Assembly (NCBI GenBank): GCA_041287245.1
Contig: JBEULP010000046.1
Span: 1 to 64,000 of the forward strand
DNA from: Infirmifilum sp.
Lineage (GTDB): Archaea > Thermoproteota > Thermoprotei > Thermofilales > Thermofilaceae
Direction of reading: 5' to 3'
Length of the DNA: 64,000 nucleotides
The position numbers and the translations under genes are program-made. Positions 21,203 to 39,061 of this stretch are shown here, in pieces. Every line of letters starts with the position of its first letter. The first letter of the stretch is position 1. The notes under the pieces are model-generated. The model was not told where the DNA came from and did no database searches. It was given only the letters and a program-made list of their open reading frames with translations.

Positions 21203-21637
21203 ATGTCTGAGTCGGGAAATCTAAATATATCTATAAGTGATTTTCTAAGGCTGATAGAGGATATTGCTGTTGCCCACGGATTCGAGGTCTCGCGTGAAGT
21301 GTATGTAGAAGGCCTAAGCCTCTACAACCACAGGTTTGATGCCTTACTACAAAAGTCATCGTTAAAAATTCTTGTCGACCTGCCCCAAGGAGTCTTCGAG
21401 TTCCTGGCCAGCCTCGCCAAGAGGGTTGACGTGCTTGAATACAAATTCCTAACGGTGGTTCATGAGGGTACTCTAACAAAAATCTTACCAGAGCTAGAGG
21501 AACATAAAAACAAAACTGCCCTCGAAGAGCAAAGCATTGTCATATATCGTGGGGTTGAGGATCTTCGAGAAAAACTTGAGATTTATTTCAAAAACCTAGC
21601 TACAGAAACACCTCCTGAAACGTCTCAGCCTCTCTAG
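21203..21637 (+). CDS. hypothetical protein, restriction-endonuclease-like (PD-(D/E)xK) fold, probably inactive
   Basis: GFEVSREVYVEGLS..HRFDAL pattern typical of Mrr-like domains; the E-x-K position reads D-L-P. Confidence 0.5.
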   Translation: MSESGNLNISISDFLRLIEDIAVAHGFEVSREVYVEGLSLYNHRFDALLQKSSLKILVDLPQGVFEFLASLAKRVDVLEYKFLTVVHEGTLTKILPELEEHKNKTALEEQSIVIYRGVEDLREKLEIYFKNLATETPPETSQPL

Positions 21638-22577: not shown

Positions 22578-23150
22578 CTAAATGGGCGAGGCTTTCTGAT
22601 TTCGCCATATGTAATTCCTAAGCTCTTCGAATTTATTATTGAAAGACTCTAGAATGCATTTCTCGTCGAGATACAGGTTGAGTATTTCGGAGACTTCCCT
22701 GATGATCTCTCTCACCTTATTTACGGTCTCGAAACTCGGGGGAGTCCCGAAGGAGGTGTTAGCTGCCACGGGGCCTATAACCCAGACATCACCCTTGAAT
22801 CTTCCCGAGGCATAGGCCAGCACAGCCACATGGGCCGGGCTAACATTGTGGGCTCCTGTATCCCGTGAAAGGAATTCAGCGACCTCCTCGGGGGATAAAA
22901 GCTTAGGGTCGAGCCTCACTTTCACGAGGTCTCCGACCTTACCATAGGACTGGTCGAAGACGTCGATGAAGATGACCAGCTCGACTCCTTCAAGGTAGGA
23001 TGCTACGGTGAACGCGTCGAGCTCTGCGTTGACAGCTCTTACTCCGCACTCAGCAAAAGCCTCGGCGAGCAGCGGGCCTATCGCGTCATCCCCGTAGAGT
23101 GGGTTTCCTATACCCACAACTAGAAAGTTTTCACTCAATTTGAGGCGCAC
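22578..23150 (-). CDS. hydrogenase maturation protease
   Basis: VVGIGNPLYGDDAIG, IFIDV, GAH motifs. Confidence 0.9.
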   Translation of the reverse strand: MRLKLSENFLVVGIGNPLYGDDAIGPLLAEAFAECGVRAVNAELDAFTVASYLEGVELVIFIDVFDQSYGKVGDLVKVRLDPKLLSPEEVAEFLSRDTGAHNVSPAHVAVLAYASGRFKGDVWVIGPVAANTSFGTPPSFETVNKVREIIREVSEILNLYLDEKCILESFNNKFEELRNYIWRNQKASPI

Positions 23151-24038: not shown

Positions 24039-24578
24039 CTAAAACCTTGGTTTTCTCCCGATTGATTTCACAAGAGCCTCAGCTAGCTCAGATTTTCCTT
24101 TCGCTCTAAGAGCCTCCTCAAGATTTTCCCAACGTCTCCTCCTAGGCTGAACCTTGGCGTCCAGCTCCGTTAGGATTGAGGCGCTCCCCAACCCAAAAGT
24201 TGACCCTAACTTCACGACGATAAGCCCAATCCCGTACTTGCCCAGCTCCTTTGGCCTGCCTAAGGCGACGTCAGCTTCTGGTGTTAGGGCTAGCCAGTGG
24301 ACATTGGCTACGGCCTCTTCCACGGTTTTAAGGAGTCTTTGGAGCGCCTGGACGCCTTCGCTGTAAGTAGAGGCTACCGCCACGGCGTGAACCACTGGGT
24401 CGTCCGCAATCGATGTTGCTACAAGTTCCAGCTCTACACCTCCCGGTGTCTTTAGGTTCTCTGTGGCGATATATCTCTCCCCGAAAACACTGTAGCCACA
24501 CATTGAGATCTGTTTAGCCATAGTGGCTCGTGTAACGGCGGGGGGAGACAACCCTACATCTGTATAAAATGTTACCAC
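24039..24578 (-). CDS. hypothetical protein, possible degenerate PD-(D/E)xK fold
   Basis: ELELVA...HAVAV...QAL...ANVHWLAL...YGIGLIVV spacing resembles this fold; catalytic residues absent. Confidence 0.5.
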   Translation of the reverse strand: MVTFYTDVGLSPPAVTRATMAKQISMCGYSVFGERYIATENLKTPGGVELELVATSIADDPVVHAVAVASTYSEGVQALQRLLKTVEEAVANVHWLALTPEADVALGRPKELGKYGIGLIVVKLGSTFGLGSASILTELDAKVQPRRRRWENLEEALRAKGKSELAEALVKSIGRKPRF

Positions 24579-25957: not shown

Positions 25958-26536
25958 ATGAATATGCGTAAGAGATATCTAATCCTCTCGGCATCCCTCT
26001 TCCTCCTAGGATTTGTAGGAGGCTATCTTCTCCCGTTCTCAGCGCCGGATACCGCATCATTCCTGTACAACTTCATTAGGGGCTCCGTGCTTGAGAAAAT
26101 CGGGAACCAGGTTACCCCTGGTTTCAGCTTAAGCCTCCTAATCTTCCTAAACAACATCCGCGTGGCCTTGGTTTCACTGGCCCTCAGTATAACCATCCTA
26201 GGACCTCTCTTAGTCGCTATGGGGAATGGGGCGATACTGGGGCTTGTAGCATCCGTCACAATATTAAACGGCAGGTCGCCCATAATCGTAGCAGCCTCCA
26301 TCCTCCCTCACGGCGCTCTGGAGATACCAGCCCTCGTTTATGTCGTGAGTATTTCGCTGGAGCTCGGGCTCGCATTATGGGATAAGATTCTGAAGGGATT
26401 GGGCGACGAGCTCAGCCTTGCTTTGAAGAATGCGCCTAGAGAGCTAATGATCGCGTTTCTACTTTTTCTCTTCGCAGCCATTGTTGAGGGACTGATAACG
26501 CCCTACGTCGTACTCTGGGTACAAAACATATTATAG
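25958..26536 (+). CDS. stage II sporulation protein M (SpoIIM) family membrane protein
   Basis: IFLNNIRV, NGAILG, ILPHGALEIPA, AAIVEGLITP. Confidence 0.92.
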   Translation: MNMRKRYLILSASLFLLGFVGGYLLPFSAPDTASFLYNFIRGSVLEKIGNQVTPGFSLSLLIFLNNIRVALVSLALSITILGPLLVAMGNGAILGLVASVTILNGRSPIIVAASILPHGALEIPALVYVVSISLELGLALWDKILKGLGDELSLALKNAPRELMIAFLLFLFAAIVEGLITPYVVLWVQNIL

Positions 26537-26565: not shown

Positions 26566-28311
26566 GTGGTTACAGTGGCAAACGACAAGGTTCACGAACG
26601 CATCATACTCCTCCGAAGATACTTACCCCAGATAGAACAGCCGACAGGATGGAGCCTCCGCGCCAAGCTCTACAAGGAGGTACTGGGGCTAGACTACGAC
26701 TGGCCTAAGAGCATAGAGGAGCTCGCCGCCCGCATCTCAGATGAGCAGCTAGTAGAGATTTTTAAGCTTTCACCCTACCGCGAATACTACTCTTTCCGAG
26801 GCCGCTTCTACACTGTGAAGAACGGTGAGCTAAGGCTGCAGGACTCCTGGGGGGAGGTTAAAAACGCCATCTGGGAAGCTTTCAAGCTCAACGGCTTAAA
26901 AGCATATGCATTGCTAAAGGCTCTTCTCGAGCTAGGTGAAACTCCCTTTGCCGCTGCAGCCGCCAGGGCTGGGGAAATTATCGGTACAAGGTTCAATGCC
27001 GCCCAGGTACTAGCCGAGCTTAGAGACCGCTGGGAGCTCGTATGGGAGTCAGGTGGGGCGCGGGAGAAAATGTGGGTTATACCGGAGGAGATCCGTCCCG
27101 TGGTTGAAGAGTTTATAAAGACTGTTGAGTCTAAGCCCTTGCCCAGGCTTAGCACGAGACACTCGGAGGAAGAGTTTGTAAGGATTCTAGAGATGGAGGC
27201 AGAGTACGACTCATACCTCCACGTGCTTGTCAGCGAGAGGCTTGAAGAGACGATGAGATTCGGGAAGAGCTTCGGCGTCAAATCCCTAGTGGACTATCTC
27301 GTCGACCTCTTCGGGCCTGAAATATTCTTCGACGAGCTTCTAACACTAGCGCAGCAGTACTCCCTGTCTGATACGGCGGTTGTGACGGAGTCGGGACACA
27401 AGTCTATGTCAACCGGCTTCAACCTCGCATTGTTCGGCGAACCTGGGACTGGGAAGACCTTCGCAACGAAGGACTTTATCCTCGGCAATGAATCCATGGG
27501 CGTGTTGCCTCACGGTCTACCCGGGGTCAACAGGTATTGCGGGGGCATCACTCCTGCGATGTTTATCGCTATTGGGGAGGCTTATTCGGGTAGGAAGTTC
27601 AACTTCATTGTGCCGGAGTTTAACGACTGGTTCAGGTATAAGGGGATGGTTGAACCCCTAAAGCTAGCGATGGAGGGGGGTGTGATAGCATACGAGACAA
27701 AAGCTTACCGCGTAGGCCCCTATAAATTCACATCTTACTTCAGCGTGAACTACAATACTAAGGTGTACGAGAGGGGCTACGAGGTAACGGTTAGCGACCC
27801 CAACTTCAACGCTATCGAAGACCGTATGCTCTGCAGGCTCCACAGGCTTACTAAGGAAAAGTATAGAGAGCTGGCAGAGAGCCAGAAGAGGCTAATGCTT
27901 GGAATCACTACGCAGAAGATGAAGAAGATGGCTCCACGCATAAGGGACCATCTCACCCTTGTACATGCTATTCAGACTGGGAACGCAAAGGTGAAAGACT
28001 TTAAGCCTAAAGACATCCTTCTAACAGAGAAAGAGTTAAAGCTCATAGAAAACGCGCGCGAGTTGATCCTCGAGCACATCCCAGCATCAAGCATTCTACC
28101 TTTCTCAATGAGGCTTGAGAGAAGGGCAATACAACTAGCCTCTGCTCTAACCCTGGTGTCATACTTCCAGTTTGACAGCCCATATATGACGATAGACCAT
28201 GAAGCACTGGTTCTCGCGGCTAGGTTCTACGTTGAGGAGGCCTGGATCCGGTTGCGGGAAAGCTTCCCCCTGGGCGAGGTTCTTCGGAAGCTGGAGAAGA
28301 CTTCTCTCTGA
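26566..28311 (+). CDS. winged-helix plus MCM-like AAA+ ATPase domain protein
   Basis: LALFGEPGTGKT Walker A; FIVPEFND Walker-B-like; LKLAMEGG; SVNYN; IEDRML; SMRLER. Confidence 0.7.
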   Translation: MVTVANDKVHERIILLRRYLPQIEQPTGWSLRAKLYKEVLGLDYDWPKSIEELAARISDEQLVEIFKLSPYREYYSFRGRFYTVKNGELRLQDSWGEVKNAIWEAFKLNGLKAYALLKALLELGETPFAAAAARAGEIIGTRFNAAQVLAELRDRWELVWESGGAREKMWVIPEEIRPVVEEFIKTVESKPLPRLSTRHSEEEFVRILEMEAEYDSYLHVLVSERLEETMRFGKSFGVKSLVDYLVDLFGPEIFFDELLTLAQQYSLSDTAVVTESGHKSMSTGFNLALFGEPGTGKTFATKDFILGNESMGVLPHGLPGVNRYCGGITPAMFIAIGEAYSGRKFNFIVPEFNDWFRYKGMVEPLKLAMEGGVIAYETKAYRVGPYKFTSYFSVNYNTKVYERGYEVTVSDPNFNAIEDRMLCRLHRLTKEKYRELAESQKRLMLGITTQKMKKMAPRIRDHLTLVHAIQTGNAKVKDFKPKDILLTEKELKLIENARELILEHIPASSILPFSMRLERRAIQLASALTLVSYFQFDSPYMTIDHEALVLAARFYVEEAWIRLRESFPLGEVLRKLEKTSL

Positions 28312-28318
28312 GGAAAGG

Positions 28319-29659
28319 TCAATAGGCTTGGGACTTGGAGTAGAAGTCGTTCACGAGCTTGTTTACCTCTACCAGAACCTTATCCATGTTCCAGTAGTGC
28401 CAGGAGCCCCACCTACCCACGCTTAGGATTCCCAGTTGGGAGAGATATTCAAGGATGCTCTTCCTGGACTCCGCGTGCCCACGCGTATATACAGGGTAGC
28501 CGTACTTATGTGCCCAGCTCCTAACAAGCCTCAGCTCGTTGCCCGTCTCTGACAAAACACCTATGTTTTTAAGCCCGTCGACTACGGCCTCCTCTATCTT
28601 CTCCTTGTCAACCTTAGCAGCCGGCTCGAGGGTTATTTCCGCTATCAAAGACGAGCTTCCCCTCGGAGCATTCAACGGGCTATAATTTGATATCCAGGCA
28701 TACCTGTGAAAAATTATGTCCCGCTGAGGGACATAGATCCAGTGTTCCTGAGGAGCTGCTTTACGGAGGGCGACACCCACAACAATAACCTTGTTGTGTT
28801 CTAGCTGTGAAGCTGCTCGCTTAATATCGCTTGGAGGGTCCAGGGCTTTTAAAAGATCCACAAGAGGAATTGTGGAGAAAACATGTCTTGCCTCAACCAT
28901 CCTATTTACCAGCCACTTCTCACCCTTAACCACTTCTTTTACCTCTACCCCCGCCAGTACCTCAACACCCTGTGAAAGGGCTCTGTGCAAAACTGAGTTG
29001 AAGAGGCTTTGAATACCCCCTCTTAGGGGGTAGTAGAACGTTGCCTGCTCAGCATATCCCACGGTTGGGACCCCAGTGGCGCTCTTAACAATGTCTCTCC
29101 AATCGGGCCATGGGAGGCGGCCCGGCACATACAGCCAATCGGAGTCGATGTCTCCAGCGCTTCGCTTCCATATCTTCTCGTTATAAGGTATGAGGTATTC
29201 TTGTGCTATTGTCTTGCCGAAGAATAGCTCCGCCCACTCTCTCAGGTTTGATACCTTTGCGTCTCCGCGAGCGTTTTTAATTAAAGCCTCGACAAACCCG
29301 ATGAGCATTTCTGCCCTCGTCTCAGGTGGAAGGACAAAGAGCCCGTTTTCAAACGGGTAGGGGACCTTGTAGCCGTTATAAAGGATGAAGCTTTTCCTTT
29401 CATGCTTCACAAAATTGTCTCCAAGGAACCCGAGTAGCTCCCTGAGGACTTCTTGGTCACGCGAGAAGAGGATGTGGCTTCCACCCACGTCAAAGGTGAA
29501 GCCATCAATAAGCTCGCTCCTCAGTAGGCCACCGAGAGCCTCATCCTTGTCTATACATATTACCTTTGCACTGGGATACTTCTCCTTCAGCCGAAGCGAG
29601 AGTAGTAGGCCTGCCCATCCGCACCCTAGTACTGCGAAATCCGTTTCTCGAGAAGGCAT
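28319..29659 (-). CDS. FAD-dependent oxidoreductase, UDP-galactopyranose-mutase/protoporphyrinogen-oxidase-like
   Basis: LGCGWAG, GGLLRS, FDVGGSHILFS, VPYPFEN, YNEKIW, YGYPVY, GRWGSWHYWNMD. Confidence 0.85.
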   Translation of the reverse strand: MPSRETDFAVLGCGWAGLLLSLRLKEKYPSAKVICIDKDEALGGLLRSELIDGFTFDVGGSHILFSRDQEVLRELLGFLGDNFVKHERKSFILYNGYKVPYPFENGLFVLPPETRAEMLIGFVEALIKNARGDAKVSNLREWAELFFGKTIAQEYLIPYNEKIWKRSAGDIDSDWLYVPGRLPWPDWRDIVKSATGVPTVGYAEQATFYYPLRGGIQSLFNSVLHRALSQGVEVLAGVEVKEVVKGEKWLVNRMVEARHVFSTIPLVDLLKALDPPSDIKRAASQLEHNKVIVVGVALRKAAPQEHWIYVPQRDIIFHRYAWISNYSPLNAPRGSSSLIAEITLEPAAKVDKEKIEEAVVDGLKNIGVLSETGNELRLVRSWAHKYGYPVYTRGHAESRKSILEYLSQLGILSVGRWGSWHYWNMDKVLVEVNKLVNDFYSKSQAY

Positions 29660-32364: not shown

Positions 32365-32871
32365 ATGGCTGGCGAGGCGAAACCCCCCTCCAGAGAGGAG
32401 GCTTTACTACAGGAGCTTCTGTATGCTATCGCCCATATAGCACATGCCGAGCAACACCTTGTCGAGATTGACTCGCAGCTCAGCGAATCCAAGCTCTCAT
32501 CCTATATTGACAGGCTGAGGATTAGCAGGAAAGACCTTGGGCAGATACTATTGGAAATAGCTGGCTTTAAGGAGAGCGGGAACGGTGGCGAGGCTAGAAC
32601 GCCTGCCGAGAGCCTGTGGTGCACGATAAAACACCTTTCAATGGCCGTCGTGCACTGTGACGAGTGCGCTGAGAAGGTCATTCGCAGGTTAAACGAAACC
32701 CTCAAGAACGGTGCAGCGGCCGAGGCTAGACCTCTTCTAAGCTACCTACACGAAATTTATAGGGTGAGGCGCGAGGCTTTTGACATGTTGACTAGGCTTG
32801 TCCGAGGTAATGAGATCTCTGGGGAGACCGTTGAAGCCGTAAGGTGCAGAGAGGATCTCTGCGTGGAATAA
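32365..32871 (+). CDS. hypothetical helical His/Cys-rich protein upstream of tatC
   Basis: AHIAHAEQHLVE and WCTIKHLSMAVVHCDEC motifs; C-terminal RCREDLC. Confidence 0.75.
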   Translation: MAGEAKPPSREEALLQELLYAIAHIAHAEQHLVEIDSQLSESKLSSYIDRLRISRKDLGQILLEIAGFKESGNGGEARTPAESLWCTIKHLSMAVVHCDECAEKVIRRLNETLKNGAAAEARPLLSYLHEIYRVRREAFDMLTRLVRGNEISGETVEAVRCREDLCVE

Positions 32872-32883
32872 GAGGTACCTTCT

Positions 32884-33714
32884 ATGGTCGAGGAGGAGCT
32901 GCCTGAGAAGCCGTTAATGGAGCACGTCTATGACCTACTCGAGACAATTAGGAGGATCCTGATACTTCATGTGGTCTTTATCCTAGGGCTTTTATTCATT
33001 CCCGCTCCGAACGAGCTGCCTAAGTCCTACGACCCTCTACTCTTTTACGCTATGAACCTGACCAAGGGCTATATGTTGGACTTCGACCACAACATTTTCG
33101 CCTACCCCTTTGCCAGGCTCTTCGGCGTAAACGGGACAAAGGTAGTCTTAATAGCCCACGGTTGGTTTGACAGCCTCACAGCCTCGCTTTACCTGGCCGC
33201 GTTAATCACCATTGCCGTTTTAAGCCCGGTAACCACTCTATATATCTACAGGTTTATAGAGCCGGGGCTATATTCACACGAAAGAAGAATACTGAAAAAA
33301 TACATTTTCATCGCTCTTGGGCTTTTCATTTCAGGCCTGGTCTACGGCTTTTTCGTCGTCATGCCTATAATCTTCGCAACCGGTGTCTGGATTGCTACCC
33401 TCGGGGGTGCCAGTCTCTTCTTCTCGATAGAGGAGTTCTACGACAACATCTTTATAGGGAGTTTGGCAACCGGCGTTTTCTTCATGTTTCCCCTAGCAAT
33501 CCTAATATTGCATAAGCTGGGGATTGTGAGCTACGAGACCTTAAACAGTAACTGGAGGGTTATAGTATTCGCAGGATATGTTTTCCTTGCACTCATAACG
33601 CCCGATCCAACGCCATTTAGCGACCTTGCACTCGGGGTACCCTTCATATTTCTCTACTTCTTTTCAATGTGGCTCGTGAAGCGATCTGAAAATAGAAAAT
33701 CAAATAAGTCATGA
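32884..33714 (+). CDS. tatC: twin-arginine translocase subunit TatC
   Basis: PLMEHV.DL...R, FIEPGLYSHER, ALITPDPTPFS. Confidence 0.93.
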   Translation: MVEEELPEKPLMEHVYDLLETIRRILILHVVFILGLLFIPAPNELPKSYDPLLFYAMNLTKGYMLDFDHNIFAYPFARLFGVNGTKVVLIAHGWFDSLTASLYLAALITIAVLSPVTTLYIYRFIEPGLYSHERRILKKYIFIALGLFISGLVYGFFVVMPIIFATGVWIATLGGASLFFSIEEFYDNIFIGSLATGVFFMFPLAILILHKLGIVSYETLNSNWRVIVFAGYVFLALITPDPTPFSDLALGVPFIFLYFFSMWLVKRSENRKSNKS

Positions 33715-33765
33715 TTAGTTGTGCTATTCTTATATATATTTAAATCTTTATATATGAAATTATTC

Positions 33766-33805
33766 AATAAAATAATACTAACATTTGACTTAGTATTATT
33801 TTATT
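33766..33805. promoter_or_regulatory. perfect 16-bp inverted repeat (8-bp spacer) upstream of the hydrogenase operon
   Basis: AATAAAATAATACTAA-catttgac-TTAGTATTATTTTATT, ending 63 bp before the small-subunit ATG. Confidence 0.65.
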
Positions 33806-33868
33806 TTATTATATTGAAGAAAAATATAAATAAATCACAATTATAATAATAACGTTAAGGCGATAAAA

Positions 33869-35137
33869 ATGCCACAGTCAGAGTTTATGTTGAGCCGCCG
33901 AGGATTCTTAAAACTCGCAGGGACTACAGCTGTTCTATCTTCACTTGATTGGAACCAGCTTGTCAAACTAGCAGCAGCCCAAGCCCAGAGCGGAGCAATA
34001 AACATCGTGTGGTTCGAGGCCCAGGACTGTGCTGGCAACACGACAGCCCTGATCCAGGCAACTGAGCCAGACCTCATCGACGTTCTCGGTGGGTCTTTCT
34101 ATGCCGTCGGTCCCGGCAACGTAAAACTTGTCTTCCACGAGACCGTTATGCCCCAATGGGGAGAAGGCGCACTCGACATCGCTAGGGCGGCTGCAAACGG
34201 GCAGCTAGACCCATTCGTTCTTGTACTTGAGGGCAGCTTCCCGCAGGACGAGAAGGCCGGTGGACCCCCCGGAAGCGACTATTACTGTTTCATAGGAGAG
34301 GAGAATGGAAAGCCGATCTCATGCGTCGAGTGGATGAGGAGACTAATCCCCAAAGCTGTAGCCGTCGTTGCAGTAGGTAACTGTGCTTCTTATGGCGGTC
34401 TAGTTGCGAACAAAGTCTTAGAAAGGGTTCCCGGCTTGCCATCCTCTACCTGGGGCGACAGCCCCACGGGAGCCGTGGGCTTCTTCCCAGACCCAATCCG
34501 AGGGCTGAAAGGGCTTGTAAATCTCTTACCTGAGGCCGAGCCGTTCAGAAGGTTCATCTCTGGACAGTGCAGCCTTAAACCGGGGGAGATACGAGCCGAT
34601 TGTAGACCCGCGGTGGCTGTGCCTGGGTGCCCGGCTAACGGAAACGGCCAGTTGAGAACGCTGGCTGCTCTTGTGCTCTGGGCTAAGGGTCTATTACCGC
34701 TTCCAGAGCTAGACCTATACTGGAGGCCAAAGTTTATCTACGGTCACACGGTTCACGAGCAGTGTCCAAGGGCTGGTTTTTACGCAGCAGGAGACTTCAG
34801 GGCATACCCAGGGGATAATACTGCTCAATGTCTCTATGCTGTCGGCTGCAAGGGTCCTATCTCCAACTGCCCGTGGAACAAGCTTGGCTGGGTTAACGGC
34901 GTGGGTGGCCCGACGCGTACTGGAGGCGTATGCATAGGGTGTACGATGCCCGGCTTCACAGACTATTATGAGCCGTTCTACAAGCCTCTCCAGGCCCCAC
35001 GCGTACCTTCAGGTTTAGAGGGGGCGGCTGCTGTAGCAGCACTGCTCGCGGGCGTTGGACTGGCTTACGGCGTTTCCAAGAATATTGAAAAGAAGAAGGA
35101 GGAGGCTCTCAAGGCTTCTAAGGGTGAGTCGTCATGA
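33869..35137 (+). CDS. hynS: membrane-bound [NiFe]-hydrogenase small subunit with Tat signal
   Basis: SRRGFLK; AQDCAGN; GNCASYGG; PGCP; HEQCPR; CLYAVGCKGP; CIGCT; C-terminal TM anchor. Confidence 0.95.
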   Translation: MPQSEFMLSRRGFLKLAGTTAVLSSLDWNQLVKLAAAQAQSGAINIVWFEAQDCAGNTTALIQATEPDLIDVLGGSFYAVGPGNVKLVFHETVMPQWGEGALDIARAAANGQLDPFVLVLEGSFPQDEKAGGPPGSDYYCFIGEENGKPISCVEWMRRLIPKAVAVVAVGNCASYGGLVANKVLERVPGLPSSTWGDSPTGAVGFFPDPIRGLKGLVNLLPEAEPFRRFISGQCSLKPGEIRADCRPAVAVPGCPANGNGQLRTLAALVLWAKGLLPLPELDLYWRPKFIYGHTVHEQCPRAGFYAAGDFRAYPGDNTAQCLYAVGCKGPISNCPWNKLGWVNGVGGPTRTGGVCIGCTMPGFTDYYEPFYKPLQAPRVPSGLEGAAAVAALLAGVGLAYGVSKNIEKKKEEALKASKGESS

Positions 35138-36924
35138 GTGTGAAGGAGGTTTTTATTGATCCTATTACCAGGATTGAGGGACACCTTGCCCTTAGAGCGC
35201 TTGTTGACATAAACGCCAGGAAGCCAACCGACGTGTGGGTATACGCAACTATGTTCAGGGGATTTGAGGTCTTCCTCAGGGGGAGACCGCCTGAGGATGC
35301 CATCCACATCACCTCAAGGATCTGTGGTGTGTGCGGCGCTAGCCACGCGAACGCCTCGATGCATGCTGTCGACATGGCATACGGTGTCGTACCGGAGCCT
35401 ATGGGCGTCGTCCTTAGAAACATGGCTTTTGCCATGACGGACCCATTATACGATCACCCGCTGATCCTCAACATGCTTGGGGGACCTGACTACAGCGAGC
35501 TAATTGTAAGTAAGCTAACACCCAAAGTTTGGGCGGACGCGCAGAGAACAGACGCCCCGCACCGAGACATACACGGCTTCGCGAAGATATCAGACATAAT
35601 GCGTGCGCTAAACCCGATAGAGGGGAAGATCTGGCAGCTCACAGTGAAGTACCAGAGAATAGCTCGAGAGGGAGGCGTCTTAATATACGGCAGGCACAGC
35701 CACCCGAGCACGATAATACCGGGTGGGATCTCGACAGACCTCTCAAACCTCGAGTACTTGCTCGTAGGATATACTTATAGGCTGACGAAGCTCACCGCTT
35801 GGGCGAAGTTCCTCTACACGGTGTGGCAGGACATCGTCTGGTTCTACGAGGAATACGAGGGCTACAGGGACCAGGGCGTCACGTATCGCCAGCATAACAT
35901 GGTTAGCGGAGGTGTATTCGATGATCCCGAGGTTTACTCCTCGCTGGGCGAAACGCCGGAGGACGTCTATAAGAACATCGACAAGGCTGCTTCGAAGCGC
36001 TCGATAAAGCCCGGTGCCTTCGTGAAGGGACAGCTGGTGACTACAAGCTACAAGGAGATTAACCTCAGCATCAAGGAGACGGTGGACAGGTCCTTCTACG
36101 AGGACTGGGTGGGAAGCTACCCAATATATACTGAGACAGACCCCGAGGGGAACAAGCTCCTCTGGGGCCAGCAAAATCCAGCCTACCACCCGTGGAACAA
36201 GACGACAATTCCAAAGCCAGGCGCCAGGGACTGGAACGGCAAGTACAACTGGGCTGCCACGGTCCGCTTCGTCTGGAAGGACGGGACCGTCACCCCATTC
36301 GAGGTAGGCCCTATCGCTAGGCTGACGGTCACTGCTTACCAGCCTAGCGACTTCGGGAGCGGTAACGGTGTGCTAAGGGTTGACTTGCCTCGCAGCGGGG
36401 GTGCAGACGACCTACCGGCAGGCGTAGTAGACGAGATGACACTCGAGTGGAAAGCACCTCCATACTCTACCACGCTACAACGCGTCCTCGCGAGGGCCTT
36501 TAACGTTGCTCTCGACGCAGGTATAGCGTGGCAGGACGTTCTCAAGGCTATCGAGCTGGCTAGAAACGGTAGGACAAAGACTTCTAGACCCTGGGTCGCC
36601 CCCAGTAGGAGGACCTTTGGAGTGGGCTTCACCGAGGCGCCTAGGGGCACTGTGAGGCACTGGGTTGTGCAGGAAGGCGGGAAGATTGTGAATTACCAGA
36701 TTCATGCTCCGACTACTGGGAATGTATCCCCGAAGGATCAGTACGGGATGTCGCCTTTCGAACAAAGCGTCGCTAACAGTGTTGTCACTGAGGAGGTGCC
36801 TCCTGATCAGTGGGAGGGTCTTGACTTTGTAAGGGCTATTAGGAGCTTTGACCCTTGCATAGCCTGTGCCGTGCACATACAGGTGGGAAGGGTTAAAGCC
36901 ATCAAGAAGATGATAGTACGGTGA
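35134..36924 (+). CDS. hynL: [NiFe]-hydrogenase large subunit
   Basis: DPITRIEGH, SRICGVCG (L1), EAPRG, RSFDPCIACAVH (L2) plus a cleavable C-terminal tail. Confidence 0.97.
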   Translation: MSVKEVFIDPITRIEGHLALRALVDINARKPTDVWVYATMFRGFEVFLRGRPPEDAIHITSRICGVCGASHANASMHAVDMAYGVVPEPMGVVLRNMAFAMTDPLYDHPLILNMLGGPDYSELIVSKLTPKVWADAQRTDAPHRDIHGFAKISDIMRALNPIEGKIWQLTVKYQRIAREGGVLIYGRHSHPSTIIPGGISTDLSNLEYLLVGYTYRLTKLTAWAKFLYTVWQDIVWFYEEYEGYRDQGVTYRQHNMVSGGVFDDPEVYSSLGETPEDVYKNIDKAASKRSIKPGAFVKGQLVTTSYKEINLSIKETVDRSFYEDWVGSYPIYTETDPEGNKLLWGQQNPAYHPWNKTTIPKPGARDWNGKYNWAATVRFVWKDGTVTPFEVGPIARLTVTAYQPSDFGSGNGVLRVDLPRSGGADDLPAGVVDEMTLEWKAPPYSTTLQRVLARAFNVALDAGIAWQDVLKAIELARNGRTKTSRPWVAPSRRTFGVGFTEAPRGTVRHWVVQEGGKIVNYQIHAPTTGNVSPKDQYGMSPFEQSVANSVVTEEVPPDQWEGLDFVRAIRSFDPCIACAVHIQVGRVKAIKKMIVR

Positions 36925-37724
36925 ATGACAGTATGGATCTATTAGACTTTGCAATCTATGTCGCACCGCCCTATGTGGTAGCGCTATTCCTCCTTGGCGT
37001 GGGCTACAGGCTGGGAAGGTATGTTTTCAGGTGGAAAAGACGTGTCCCGGCGACCCGAAGGACTAGGCCTCTACCAAGCCTGCTTGTAGGAATAATTAGA
37101 ACCTTTGCCGACCCTCTGATCGTCGGACTTAAGCAGAGGAAGGGGGACTTTATAGGCGGTCTCGTAGCCTTGCACATTCTGGGCGTAATACCTCTGATTT
37201 TCCTGTTAGCCCCGCACGTGATCGTGTTCACATACTGGCTCCCCATCTACTCCATTCTAAAGCCTCTGGCGATACCGGCCTCGATAACCTCGTCGGGCCT
37301 CACACTCCTGCACAACGTGCTTCCGGCGTCAGACATGTCTTGGACCTTTGTTAACACCCTCTGGGGTCCACTAGTCATAATTCTCAATGGGGATCTTCTA
37401 GCAATTCTAGCAATACTCGGCGTCTCATACAAGATAGGTGATAAGCTTGTACGCCTCTTCCACAGGCTTCCCAACAACAGGATAGGCGACTGGTACGCTC
37501 TGCTGCTCCTCCTATCAATCCTAGTCACAGGCTTCCTAGCTACACATCACCTACCCTCAGGCGACATAGGGACTTACAGGTTTGTACTTGGCCTCCATAT
37601 AACGCTGGCAGAGCTCCTGGTGATATCCCTGCCCTTCACGAAGTTCTGGCACTTCGTCTTCGGTTACTGGTACGGCAAGCTTCACGAGTGGTACGACTTA
37701 AAGTTCAACAGGGGGGCATTATGA
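36921..37724 (+). CDS. NarI/DsrM-like cytochrome b membrane subunit (Isp1-like)
   Basis: 5 TM helices, conserved His residues, GLHITLAELL...LPFTKFWH. Confidence 0.85.
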   Translation: MNDSMDLLDFAIYVAPPYVVALFLLGVGYRLGRYVFRWKRRVPATRRTRPLPSLLVGIIRTFADPLIVGLKQRKGDFIGGLVALHILGVIPLIFLLAPHVIVFTYWLPIYSILKPLAIPASITSSGLTLLHNVLPASDMSWTFVNTLWGPLVIILNGDLLAILAILGVSYKIGDKLVRLFHRLPNNRIGDWYALLLLLSILVTGFLATHHLPSGDIGTYRFVLGLHITLAELLVISLPFTKFWHFVFGYWYGKLHEWYDLKFNRGAL

Positions 37725-39061
37725 GCGGTGTAATGAACCTGGATACCGAGAAGATTAAGGCTGCCGAGGCCTACGCCCTCTCCCACCTCGACCCCGTAAT
37801 GATGCACTTCTTCGAAGACTGCGTAAACTGCGGCCTCTGCGAGGTTAATTGTCCCTATACGCCGGCGGGCGAGGAGTATGGTCCTGTTGAGAAGGCAGAG
37901 GGTCTTAGAGACATATACCGCTTTAACACTCAACTGCTGCCCAGGATCTTTCCATGGCTCTTCGGAGGCAAGAGGCCGAGGGACGCTGCTGAGCTGGAAA
38001 AGTGGATGGAGAGGGCATATAGGTGCACTAACTGCGGCCTTTGCTACGTAACATGCCCATTCGGCATACACAGCGGGGAAATGATAAAGGTTCTAAGGGG
38101 CTACCTAGCTTTAAACGGGAAGATACCCACCCTGCTCAAAATGATGATCGATGCTGAGGCCTCCAATACTCTCCTGGAAAACCCCGGCTTCAAAAAGATC
38201 TGGGAAGACACCATCAGTAAGATCAGCGCTGAGGGCGTCCAGTTCAACAAGAAGGGAGCTAAATACCTCTACCTCACCTCTCTGGCAGAAGCCATGATGA
38301 CCCCCAACTCTGTGTTCGGCGCTGTGAAGCTCCTTAACAAGCTCGGGCTTGACTGGACGATGCCCGACCAGCCTCTCTCGATGAGAGTCCCAATAGGATC
38401 CCTCGCAGGCGACGACGGCGCGACCGCTGTCGTTACTCGGAGGGTATACGAGTACATAAGGCAGATAAACCCCGAGTACGTGGTGCTCAGCGACGGGGGC
38501 TACCCGTATAGCTTCCTAAGGTTCGATCTTCCGAGGATAGTGGGAGAAAAGCCTACCTTCAAGGTTATACACATTGTTGAGCTCGTAGAGGAGTCCTTGA
38601 AACAGGGTAAGATAAAGTTCAGGCAGACAAGCGAGAAGGTTACGTGGCACAGCCCCTGCAAGATGGGCCGCTTTGGCGGGCTAATAGAGGAACCAGTCCA
38701 CGTACTTAGAAACGTCTCTACAGGGTTTGTCAAACTGAAAAGCCACGGTATTTACAGCAAGTGCTGCGGAGGCGGAAGCAGTATCGCCTGCATAGTTCCT
38801 CCGACACAAGAAGCCATGGAGAAGATAATGGGTGGAGCTGTGCCAGTCTCTGACGGCGAAAAACAATTCCTAGACAAGCTCTACAAGGACATGCTAGTAG
38901 CGGGGAAGGCAAAAGTCGACGAGATAAAAGAGTCCGGAGCATCTATTGTCGTGACGTCCTGTGTAGGGTGTTTTCACACCCTAGGGATGACTACAAGTGC
39001 CTATGGAGTTAACGTAAAGCTGAAAATGCTATCAGAATATCTTGCAGAATATATAGAATGA
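37721..39061 (+). CDS. HdrD/DsrK-like Fe-S oxidoreductase (Isp2-like)
   Basis: CVNCGLCEVNCP, CTNCGLCYVTCP, WHSPC, KCCGGG, TSCVGC; start at ATG 37721 (ATGA overlap). Confidence 0.9.
   Translation: MSGVMNLDTEKIKAAEAYALSHLDPVMMHFFEDCVNCGLCEVNCPYTPAGEEYGPVEKAEGLRDIYRFNTQLLPRIFPWLFGGKRPRDAAELEKWMERAYRCTNCGLCYVTCPFGIHSGEMIKVLRGYLALNGKIPTLLKMMIDAEASNTLLENPGFKKIWEDTISKISAEGVQFNKKGAKYLYLTSLAEAMMTPNSVFGAVKLLNKLGLDWTMPDQPLSMRVPIGSLAGDDGATAVVTRRVYEYIRQINPEYVVLSDGGYPYSFLRFDLPRIVGEKPTFKVIHIVELVEESLKQGKIKFRQTSEKVTWHSPCKMGRFGGLIEEPVHVLRNVSTGFVKLKSHGIYSKCCGGGSSIACIVPPTQEAMEKIMGGAVPVSDGEKQFLDKLYKDMLVAGKAKVDEIKESGASIVVTSCVGCFHTLGMTTSAYGVNVKLKMLSEYLAEYIE

Follow-up and report, generated by a model that had tools for sequence, protein, structure and literature searches.

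Several described systems contain AAA+ motors that resemble the protein analyzed herein. McrB of McrBC combines an interchangeable N-terminal DNA-reading domain with a ring AAA+ beside a nuclease, a layout like the one predicted in this study. BrxL of BREX (8emc), according to the accessible parts of its descriptions, is a DNA-dependent ATPase of MCM-like type that phage restriction requires (PMC10164562) and is present in 76% of Type-1 BREX (PMC12839542); it carries a sigma-HTH and OB N-terminus and, in Type 1, a Lon or HKD C-terminus. MtsA of MANTIS, in the available text of a preprint (bioRxiv 10.64898/2026.09.23.753747), is an AAA+ protein with a wHTH (winged helix-turn-helix) that loads a DNA methylase; it belongs to the ORC/Cdc6 clade, forms a dimer and acts in a four-gene system, and MCM is mentioned 0 times in that text. 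The MCM-like helicases of mobile elements (Cch, 5dgk; SaPI Rep, 8tch; BcMCM) join an MCM-clade core to a non-MCM N-terminus and have an iteron-binding WHD at the C-terminus (PMC9371898, accessible part).

In the present study, a stretch of 64,000 nucleotides from Infirmifilum sp. (contig JBEULP010000046.1; hereafter the window) was analyzed, in which an intact ORF at 26566-28311 on the forward strand codes for 581 aa. The true start may be the GTG at 26575, because the protein is 578 aa long in the public record and alignments with homologues begin at residue 4. Among named homologues, those of Infirmifilum and Thermofilum are nearest (61-77% identity). The features of the locus are as follows.

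25958..26536, forward strand: SpoIIM-family membrane gene, upstream; a neighbor in 4/7 genus genomes mapped, and no family-wide partner
26566..28311, forward strand: gene for the wHTH plus MCM-clade AAA+ protein, 581 aa; start possibly at 26575
26575..26841, forward strand: N-terminal helical/beta subdomain, residues 4-92; no clear solved structural match (matches cover 89-185); moves with the wHTH as one module, also in ATPase-less proteins
26842..27135, forward strand: predicted wHTH, residues 93-190; VIA-align Z up to 10.8
27043..27075, forward strand: wing of the wHTH, residues 160-170, without the GSxx[YH]P motif of sister lineages
27157..28260, forward strand: predicted MCM-type ATPase tier, residues ~198-565, with external hairpin, PS1 hairpin and pre-sensor-2 helices and no helix-2 insert
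27436..27459, forward strand: Walker A, residues 291-298; canonical Gly at the position of MCM's Ala
27601..27627, forward strand: Walker B region, residues 346-354; Pro350 (Thr or Pro in the family), Glu351 invariant
27682..27726, forward strand: pre-sensor-1 beta-hairpin (PS1), residues 373-387, from DSSP of the model and spacing compared with MCM
27742..27756, forward strand: sensor 1 (N395, N397), from invariance across family loci
27817..27825, forward strand: arginine finger (E418-D419-R420), from invariance across loci and spacing compared with the host MCM
28105..28113, forward strand: sensor 2 (S514, R516), from invariance across loci and spacing compared with the host MCM
28319..29659, reverse strand: flavin oxidoreductase gene, convergent; synteny local only

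An AlphaFold model built from a 33-row alignment reached a pLDDT of 88.3, and all of the PDB rows that Foldseek listed for it were MCM or CMG chains. In an independent structural alignment against 48,161 chains, MCM chains occupied ranks 1-11 (Z 18.0-20.2) over residues ~190-565, followed by BchI (15.1), RavA (14.3), BrxL (14.0), ComM (12.8), the MoxR-like 2r44 (12.5) and Cch (11.2). Many wHTH proteins matched residues 93-190 at a Z of about 10. The N-terminal module folded alone gave a pLDDT of 94.7 and the same wHTH matches, the best of which, the Cdc6/Orc1 winged helix (10.8), was tied with many others, and the structural search gave no clear match for residues 1-90, with Atlas scores under 0.9. 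Because the MCM matches cover residues ~190-565 and the wHTH matches residues 93-190, the model places the beginning of the ATPase tier near residue 190-200. Thus, the AAA+ fold expected by the original prediction, which had been made from the sequence without database searches, was recovered with MCM chains as the best matches, and its wHTH was located at residues 93-190; the ATPase start at about residue 270 was misplaced, as the N-terminal module comprises just residues 1-190. The claim that this part lacks cysteines and the MCM Zn-finger/OB region agrees with the absence of Cys from residues 1-270 and with the module folding as a helical subdomain plus wHTH.

All of the MCM ATPase motifs that had been cited were found in the MCM order and at spacings close to those of the host MCM, namely 18 residues in both proteins from the PS1 hairpin to sensor 1, 26 against 27 from sensor 1 to the arginine finger, and 95 against 89 from the arginine finger to sensor 2, with the protein ending 68 residues past sensor 2. 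The PS1 hairpin strands lie at 373-377 and 382-387 in the model, and their spacing equals that in MCM. When compared by profile, the protein and the host MCM showed no significant similarity (probability 3%), so that the connection to MCM is based on the structure and the spacing of the motifs. The view that this is not the replicative MCM was correct, since the only PF00493 match in the host genome is its own MCM on another contig (C49).

Compared with MCM proteins (3ja8, 4r7z, 8q67, M. kandleri 3f8t and MCM8/9), the predicted structure shares the fold (280-320 residues aligned at an rmsd of about 4 A, Z 18-20), the motif order and spacing, the external and PS1 hairpins and the pre-sensor-2 helices. 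However, identity is just 11-15%, PF00493 does not match, the OB/zinc N-tier and the helix-2 insert are missing, Walker B reads Thr/Pro-Glu-Phe-Asn instead of DEFDK, Walker A is followed by 11 additional residues, and the wHTH is N-terminal rather than C-terminal; membership in the MCM family was rejected on the tier, the insert, Walker B and PF00493. The MCM part of the proposed MCM/MoxR/chelatase placement was retained, whereas the MoxR and Mg-chelatase part was rejected (Z 12.5-15.1 versus 20 for MCM, and no helix-2 insert). BrxL shares the MCM-family AAA+ core, putative N-terminal DNA-binding parts and, if the gene linkage of the relatives is functional, an accessory role in a methylase-based defense system. 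Identity with BrxL was rejected despite the Z of 14.0: the present protein has none of OB, Lon or HKD, its neighbors are the SpoIIM and flavin oxidoreductase genes instead of a BREX operon, and its relatives are paired, in units of two genes, with Type IIG or Zn-ribbon methylase-nucleases, other BREX genes being absent from the recurring neighbors. McrB, a possible structural relative, was absent from the top 50 structural rows listed; no McrC neighbor occurs here, and the partners of the relatives methylate as well as cut. MtsA, despite its different clade, is a precedent for the ancestral role that we infer below, and among the mobile-element helicases Cch and SaPI Rep matched at Z 11.2 and 9.4. 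In its working mode, the protein is thus modeled as an MCM-clade motor that is not MCM, BrxL or MoxR.

The missing helix-2 insert, a 16-residue deletion at the MCM position, had been overlooked by the original prediction. From strand 2 to Walker B there are 26 residues versus 42 in MCM, and the helix at 330-340 is uninterrupted in the model. The insert has been reported as necessary for MCM helicase activity (PMC1635305, accessible part), and duplex unwinding by this protein is therefore unlikely, to judge from the model. These results bear on whether the gene is a viral or plasmid replication helicase that was captured, of the Cch, SaPI Rep or BcMCM type. MCM cores with a foreign N-terminus can still unwind DNA, as described for BcMCM in the available text of PMC2715239, Nitrosocaldus copies adjoin ParB and VirB4-like genes, Cch matches the model (Z 11.2), and viral MCM-like proteins match it weakly (E about 1e-7, TM 0.3-0.4). 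Nevertheless, two scans of a viral contig collection confirmed no relative, no primase or integrase was recognized among the recurring neighbors scanned, and the helix-2 insert is absent, so that we give this origin a very slim chance.

With regard to the active site, K297, E351, N353, N395, N397, E418, R420, S514 and R516 are invariant in 81/81 loci. At the position of the MCM Walker B Asp, 346 distinct sequences matched by pattern carry Thr (224) or Pro (122) and never Asp. The replacement of Asp by Pro that had been noticed in this protein is real, although Pro350 is particular to this genome, the other 7 genus genomes having Thr. Because Thr or Pro is found family-wide while the other catalytic residues are invariant, the Walker B change is an old family trait and not decay. 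Inteins are present in three members (P0125, P0134 and P0167), right after Walker B or right before the arginine finger, which are insertion points typical of essential sites. Four very divergent members (P0206, P0207, P0226 and P0268; 21-29% identity) have altered or lost Walker motifs. In the accessible part of PMC9599734, a key catalytic role in P-loop NTPases is ascribed to the Walker B Asp, and rare cases of Glu as the Walker B acid are noted. Thus, ATP turnover may be slow, and Glu351 could be the catalytic base or itself the Walker B acid. A nucleotide-binding switch or scaffold with poor hydrolysis would suit the importance of the Asp and its replacement in 346/346 matched sequences; we consider it improbable in view of the invariant Walker A Lys, Glu351, sensor 1, arginine finger and sensor 2, the inteins beside Walker B and the arginine finger (P0134, P0125), and the rare use of Glu as the acid.

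The membership of the protein in a large family, with nearest relatives linked to restriction-modification (R-M), had also been overlooked. Of 7995 candidates scored, 1359 were homologues; clustering at 50% left 159 family representatives, and profile matches were found in 29/401 genomes sampled from the phylum, 3 of them partial. The family is a conserved MCM-clade ATPase family undetected by Pfam, NCBIfam, PHROGs and PADLOC: searches of the protein against Pfam gave nothing specific (sub-threshold AAA_22 only), those against NCBIfam, PHROGs, PADLOC and the PDB by sequence gave no specific match, and PF00493 is absent from the 25 families listed for 33 members, while two members are entered in UniRef as "MCM domain-containing protein". 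The literature searched, supplements with possible arCOG-level lists apart, contained no account of this family, which is also unmentioned in the accessible parts of PMC6563490, PMC10853773, PMC9371898 and PMC11188069.

The domains of the family are shuffled in a defense-like manner, and the two halves of the protein also occur separately. The 190-aa N-terminal module, a mobile domain without a name, stands alone or is joined to TIR, PLD-like or nuclease-like domains (P0223, P0227, P0241, P0259, P0266, P0253, P0238; L188:4889-5521), with fusion to TIR in 5/27 ATPase-less cases scanned, and it may be an undescribed sensor. The ATPase was found behind an Mrr nuclease, HhH (4 proteins, below the Pfam cut-off) or an AbiEi HTH. 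One member (L185:5031-6908, P0110) has the ATPase attached to another N-terminus, which by eye resembles EVE/YTH and has no Pfam match; at a distance of about 130 kb, the same contig contains an IIG gene with a frameshift. A 1095-aa member from a Dehalococcoidales bin (L044:344-3628) has a C-terminal extension of ~520 aa of no recognized family. A form of ~820 aa (L045:7809-10247, L059:7989-10451, P0130, P0269-P0322) is mostly from Planctomycetota where named, and the two loci of this form that were seen (L045, L059) come after a Zn-ribbon methylase-nuclease fusion. A C-terminal RNxxxH motif is carried by all 45/45 members of 760-850 aa; this region may be HEPN-like, the DUF4145 match of the long members being at E 0.014 only, and a HEPN-like domain there is a possible abortive back-up effector.

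The neighborhood survey suggested by the original prediction tied the nearest relatives to R-M genes. It covered 161 loci, made up of the window and the 80 best hits each from genomes (out of 365) and metagenomes (out of 543), a choice that favors close relatives. Within two ORFs of the ATPase, a ~548-aa coiled-coil gene was found at 54 loci, a Type IIG family (d2) at 42, a second IIG family at 5, a Zn-ribbon methylase-nuclease (best PADLOC match PglXI) at 9, a Nitrosocaldus block with ParB and VirB4-like genes at 13, and none of these at 38. An R-M gene lies directly upstream on the same strand with a gap of -30 to +30 bp at 44/161 loci (25/102 after 90% dereplication), and this place is filled by three different methylase-nuclease fusion families. 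The identities of the ATPase and its IIG partner co-vary across 22 pairs (rho 0.47, 0/2000 permutations), although the kin are not independent and the Mantel test overstates this. The IIG partners keep NPPW in 22/22 and PD-(D/E)xK in 20/22, the other two being truncated. The named hosts of the cassettes include Desulfurococcales, Methanodesulfokora, Bathyarchaeia, Micrarchaeota, Methanosarcinales and three bacteria; IIG-linked loci show no tRNA enrichment (0/23). In several IIG plus ATPase cassettes (L139-L144, L152), an EVE-domain gene lies upstream and a DGQHR (DpdB/DndB-like) gene downstream. In the reverse control, the ATPase was present in just 4/30 genomes with an IIG match and adjacent in 1, and one genome (G269) has a full-length IIG gene, 62% identical, with no ATPase found. 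IIG enzymes of this kind are thus often without the ATPase, so that the linkage could be hitch-hiking, and the ATPase would be at most accessory to IIG, as BrxL is to BREX.

The coiled-coil pairing is the largest part of the family sampled. The ~548-aa gene (L022-L080, e.g. L033:942-2588) is directly upstream of the ATPase, mostly in Bathyarchaeia; its product belongs to no Pfam or NCBIfam family and has a weak JetC match (E 0.0016). A convergent gene of ~230 aa and of no known family often follows these loci. This arrangement, together with the structural matches to BchI, RavA and 2r44, would suit a protein-remodeling ATPase of the MoxR/chelatase type. We regard such a role as decidedly improbable here, since MCM chains lead by about 5 Z units, all nameable N-termini are of nucleic-acid-binding types, no VWA partner was recognized among the recurring neighbors, and the coiled-coil gene was not found in this genome.

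The phylogenetic place of the ATPase is closest to IIG-linked copies. In a tree of 54 of the 102 non-redundant rows (short rows were dropped, and 6/45 coiled-coil and 10/19 unlinked rows were kept), the genus clade (support 100/99) is sister to an IIG-linked locus, L103 (100/98), and both lie inside a clade of 31 rows (97/96), 23 of which are IIG-linked; two members (P0015 and P0017) fall outside the genus clade. In an AU test on 37 rows, a clade of the IIG-linked rows excluding the genus was not rejected (p=0.069), so that "sister to" is safe, "nested in" is not, and descent from an IIG cassette is likely on this sequence evidence.

Within the genus, the gene has the appearance of a resident. 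It is present in 7/7 other genus genomes (8/8 of Thermofilum/Infirmifilum with this one) and in 0/15 genomes of other genera of the family, where one weak match (G030, E 1.5e-4) lands in an unrelated ORF. Three gene contexts were seen among the 7 genus genomes mapped. The genus copy is under purifying selection: dN/dS is 0.01-0.18 in unsaturated genus pairs, which alone were used because synonymous distances are saturated between most species, and 0.08-0.18 in IIG-linked pairs, and core identity across the genus is 67-86% versus 72-88% for MCM. Codon use is native (78th percentile of 592 long ORFs). The suggestion that the gene is domesticated was thereby supported for this genus, and the reported absence of mobile elements nearby was likewise upheld: the flanking ORFs scanned are housekeeping-type or without assignment, and the window has no tRNA or telling repeat flanking the gene, the sole tRNA being 16 kb away and the repeats unremarkable. 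Neither the window nor the flanking DNA in 6 other genus genomes has a Type IIG gene adjacent to the ATPase, and no Eco57I-family gene (PF07669) was found in the 6/6 genus genomes searched, i.e. this genome and five relatives. Two other genus genomes carry distant IIG genes elsewhere. Several methylase-like ORFs are found elsewhere in the present genome (G000 contigs C4, C28, C76, C77, C66 and C93), along with an EVE-like ORF and a C-terminal fragment of a Type IIG gene (321 aa), and the methylase-like ORFs or the fragment could act in trans with the ATPase.

The wing of the wHTH has changed as well. The motif GSxx[YH]P is found in 19/23 IIG-linked rows and 16/27 ATPase-less modules. In the genus clade it occurs in 0/12 rows, and the wing there varies and is in many cases acidic. 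With this motif of the sister lineages missing, the DNA-binding character that had been predicted for the protein is less sure, even though the wHTH is present. However, the coiled-coil, Nitrosocaldus and Zn-ribbon-methylase groups also lack the motif, so that its loss need not end DNA binding, and the change probably marks an altered specificity rather than proven loss of DNA binding.

Herein, we propose an explanation to which we give an even chance: the winged-helix plus MCM-fold ATPase is likely a dsDNA-translocating ring, formerly an accessory motor of Type IIG cassettes, that is now partnerless in the genus and likely kept as a non-specific motor for chromosome upkeep. The fold is predicted, and we infer ring formation, nucleotide use and DNA binding. 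The ring would move along double-stranded DNA without unwinding it; ATP would be bound between adjacent subunits, with R420 and R516 spanning the interface in the manner of MCM, E351 would be the catalytic acid, and the PS1 hairpin would grip duplex DNA during tracking. In the ancestral cassette, the wHTH would have placed the ring on DNA, and the Type IIG enzyme would have been loaded or pushed by the motor, on the analogy of BrxL in BREX and MtsA in MANTIS. In the genus, the ring would act alone and non-specifically, and its present job might be clearing proteins off DNA or aiding repair, which is the weakest step.

The protein might still be a defense factor, either as a stand-alone ring clamping incoming viral or plasmid DNA or in trans with a host methylase or nuclease, as the family's associations with R-M, HEPN-like, TIR and Mrr parts, the requirement for BrxL in phage restriction, and the other methylase-like and EVE-like ORFs of the genome would allow. 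Defense genes are typically patchy in distribution; the genus-wide presence (8/8), native codon use and housekeeping neighbors are therefore unlike them, this copy has no effector domain, and the Eco57I family is missing from the 6 genus genomes searched. We thus consider a present role in defense unlikely and prefer the partnerless chromosomal motor.

A wider formulation is offered tentatively and lies on the doubtful side of even. The family would be the motor of an undescribed ATP-driven R-M class, in which a Type IIG or Zn-ribbon methylase-nuclease is combined with an MCM-like ring with a Thr/Pro-Glu Walker B and sometimes a fused HEPN toxin. It would have been domesticated more than once (alone in Thermofilum; with a coiled-coil partner in Bathyarchaeia), the partner and the DNA-reading wing having been lost together here.

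The present study adds tests of the sister relationship to IIG-linked copies (supported in the tree), of the co-variation and of the wing change, as well as the reverse control. To our knowledge, Type IIG enzymes are normally thought to need no ATP, and the linkage, if functional, would represent a motor-assisted form of Type IIG restriction; the present locus is the partner-less case and the least informative on such a system. The retention of the catalytic residues without the Walker B Asp and the helix-2 insert provides a natural test of the roles of both elements. Moreover, the genus has cultured species, and the apparent move from defense to core gene is thus open to experiment.

A promoter and terminator scan around the gene gave chance-level results, and no RNA runs are listed for the locus. 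On the upstream side in the window, two small ORFs (21203-21637 and 24039-24578) have a restriction-endonuclease-fold look by eye and no Pfam family, and an ORF at 22578-23150 resembles a hydrogenase maturation protease when its translation is read by eye. On the other side, the translations of 32365-39061, also read by eye, suggest a membrane-bound NiFe hydrogenase cluster with a TatC-like gene.
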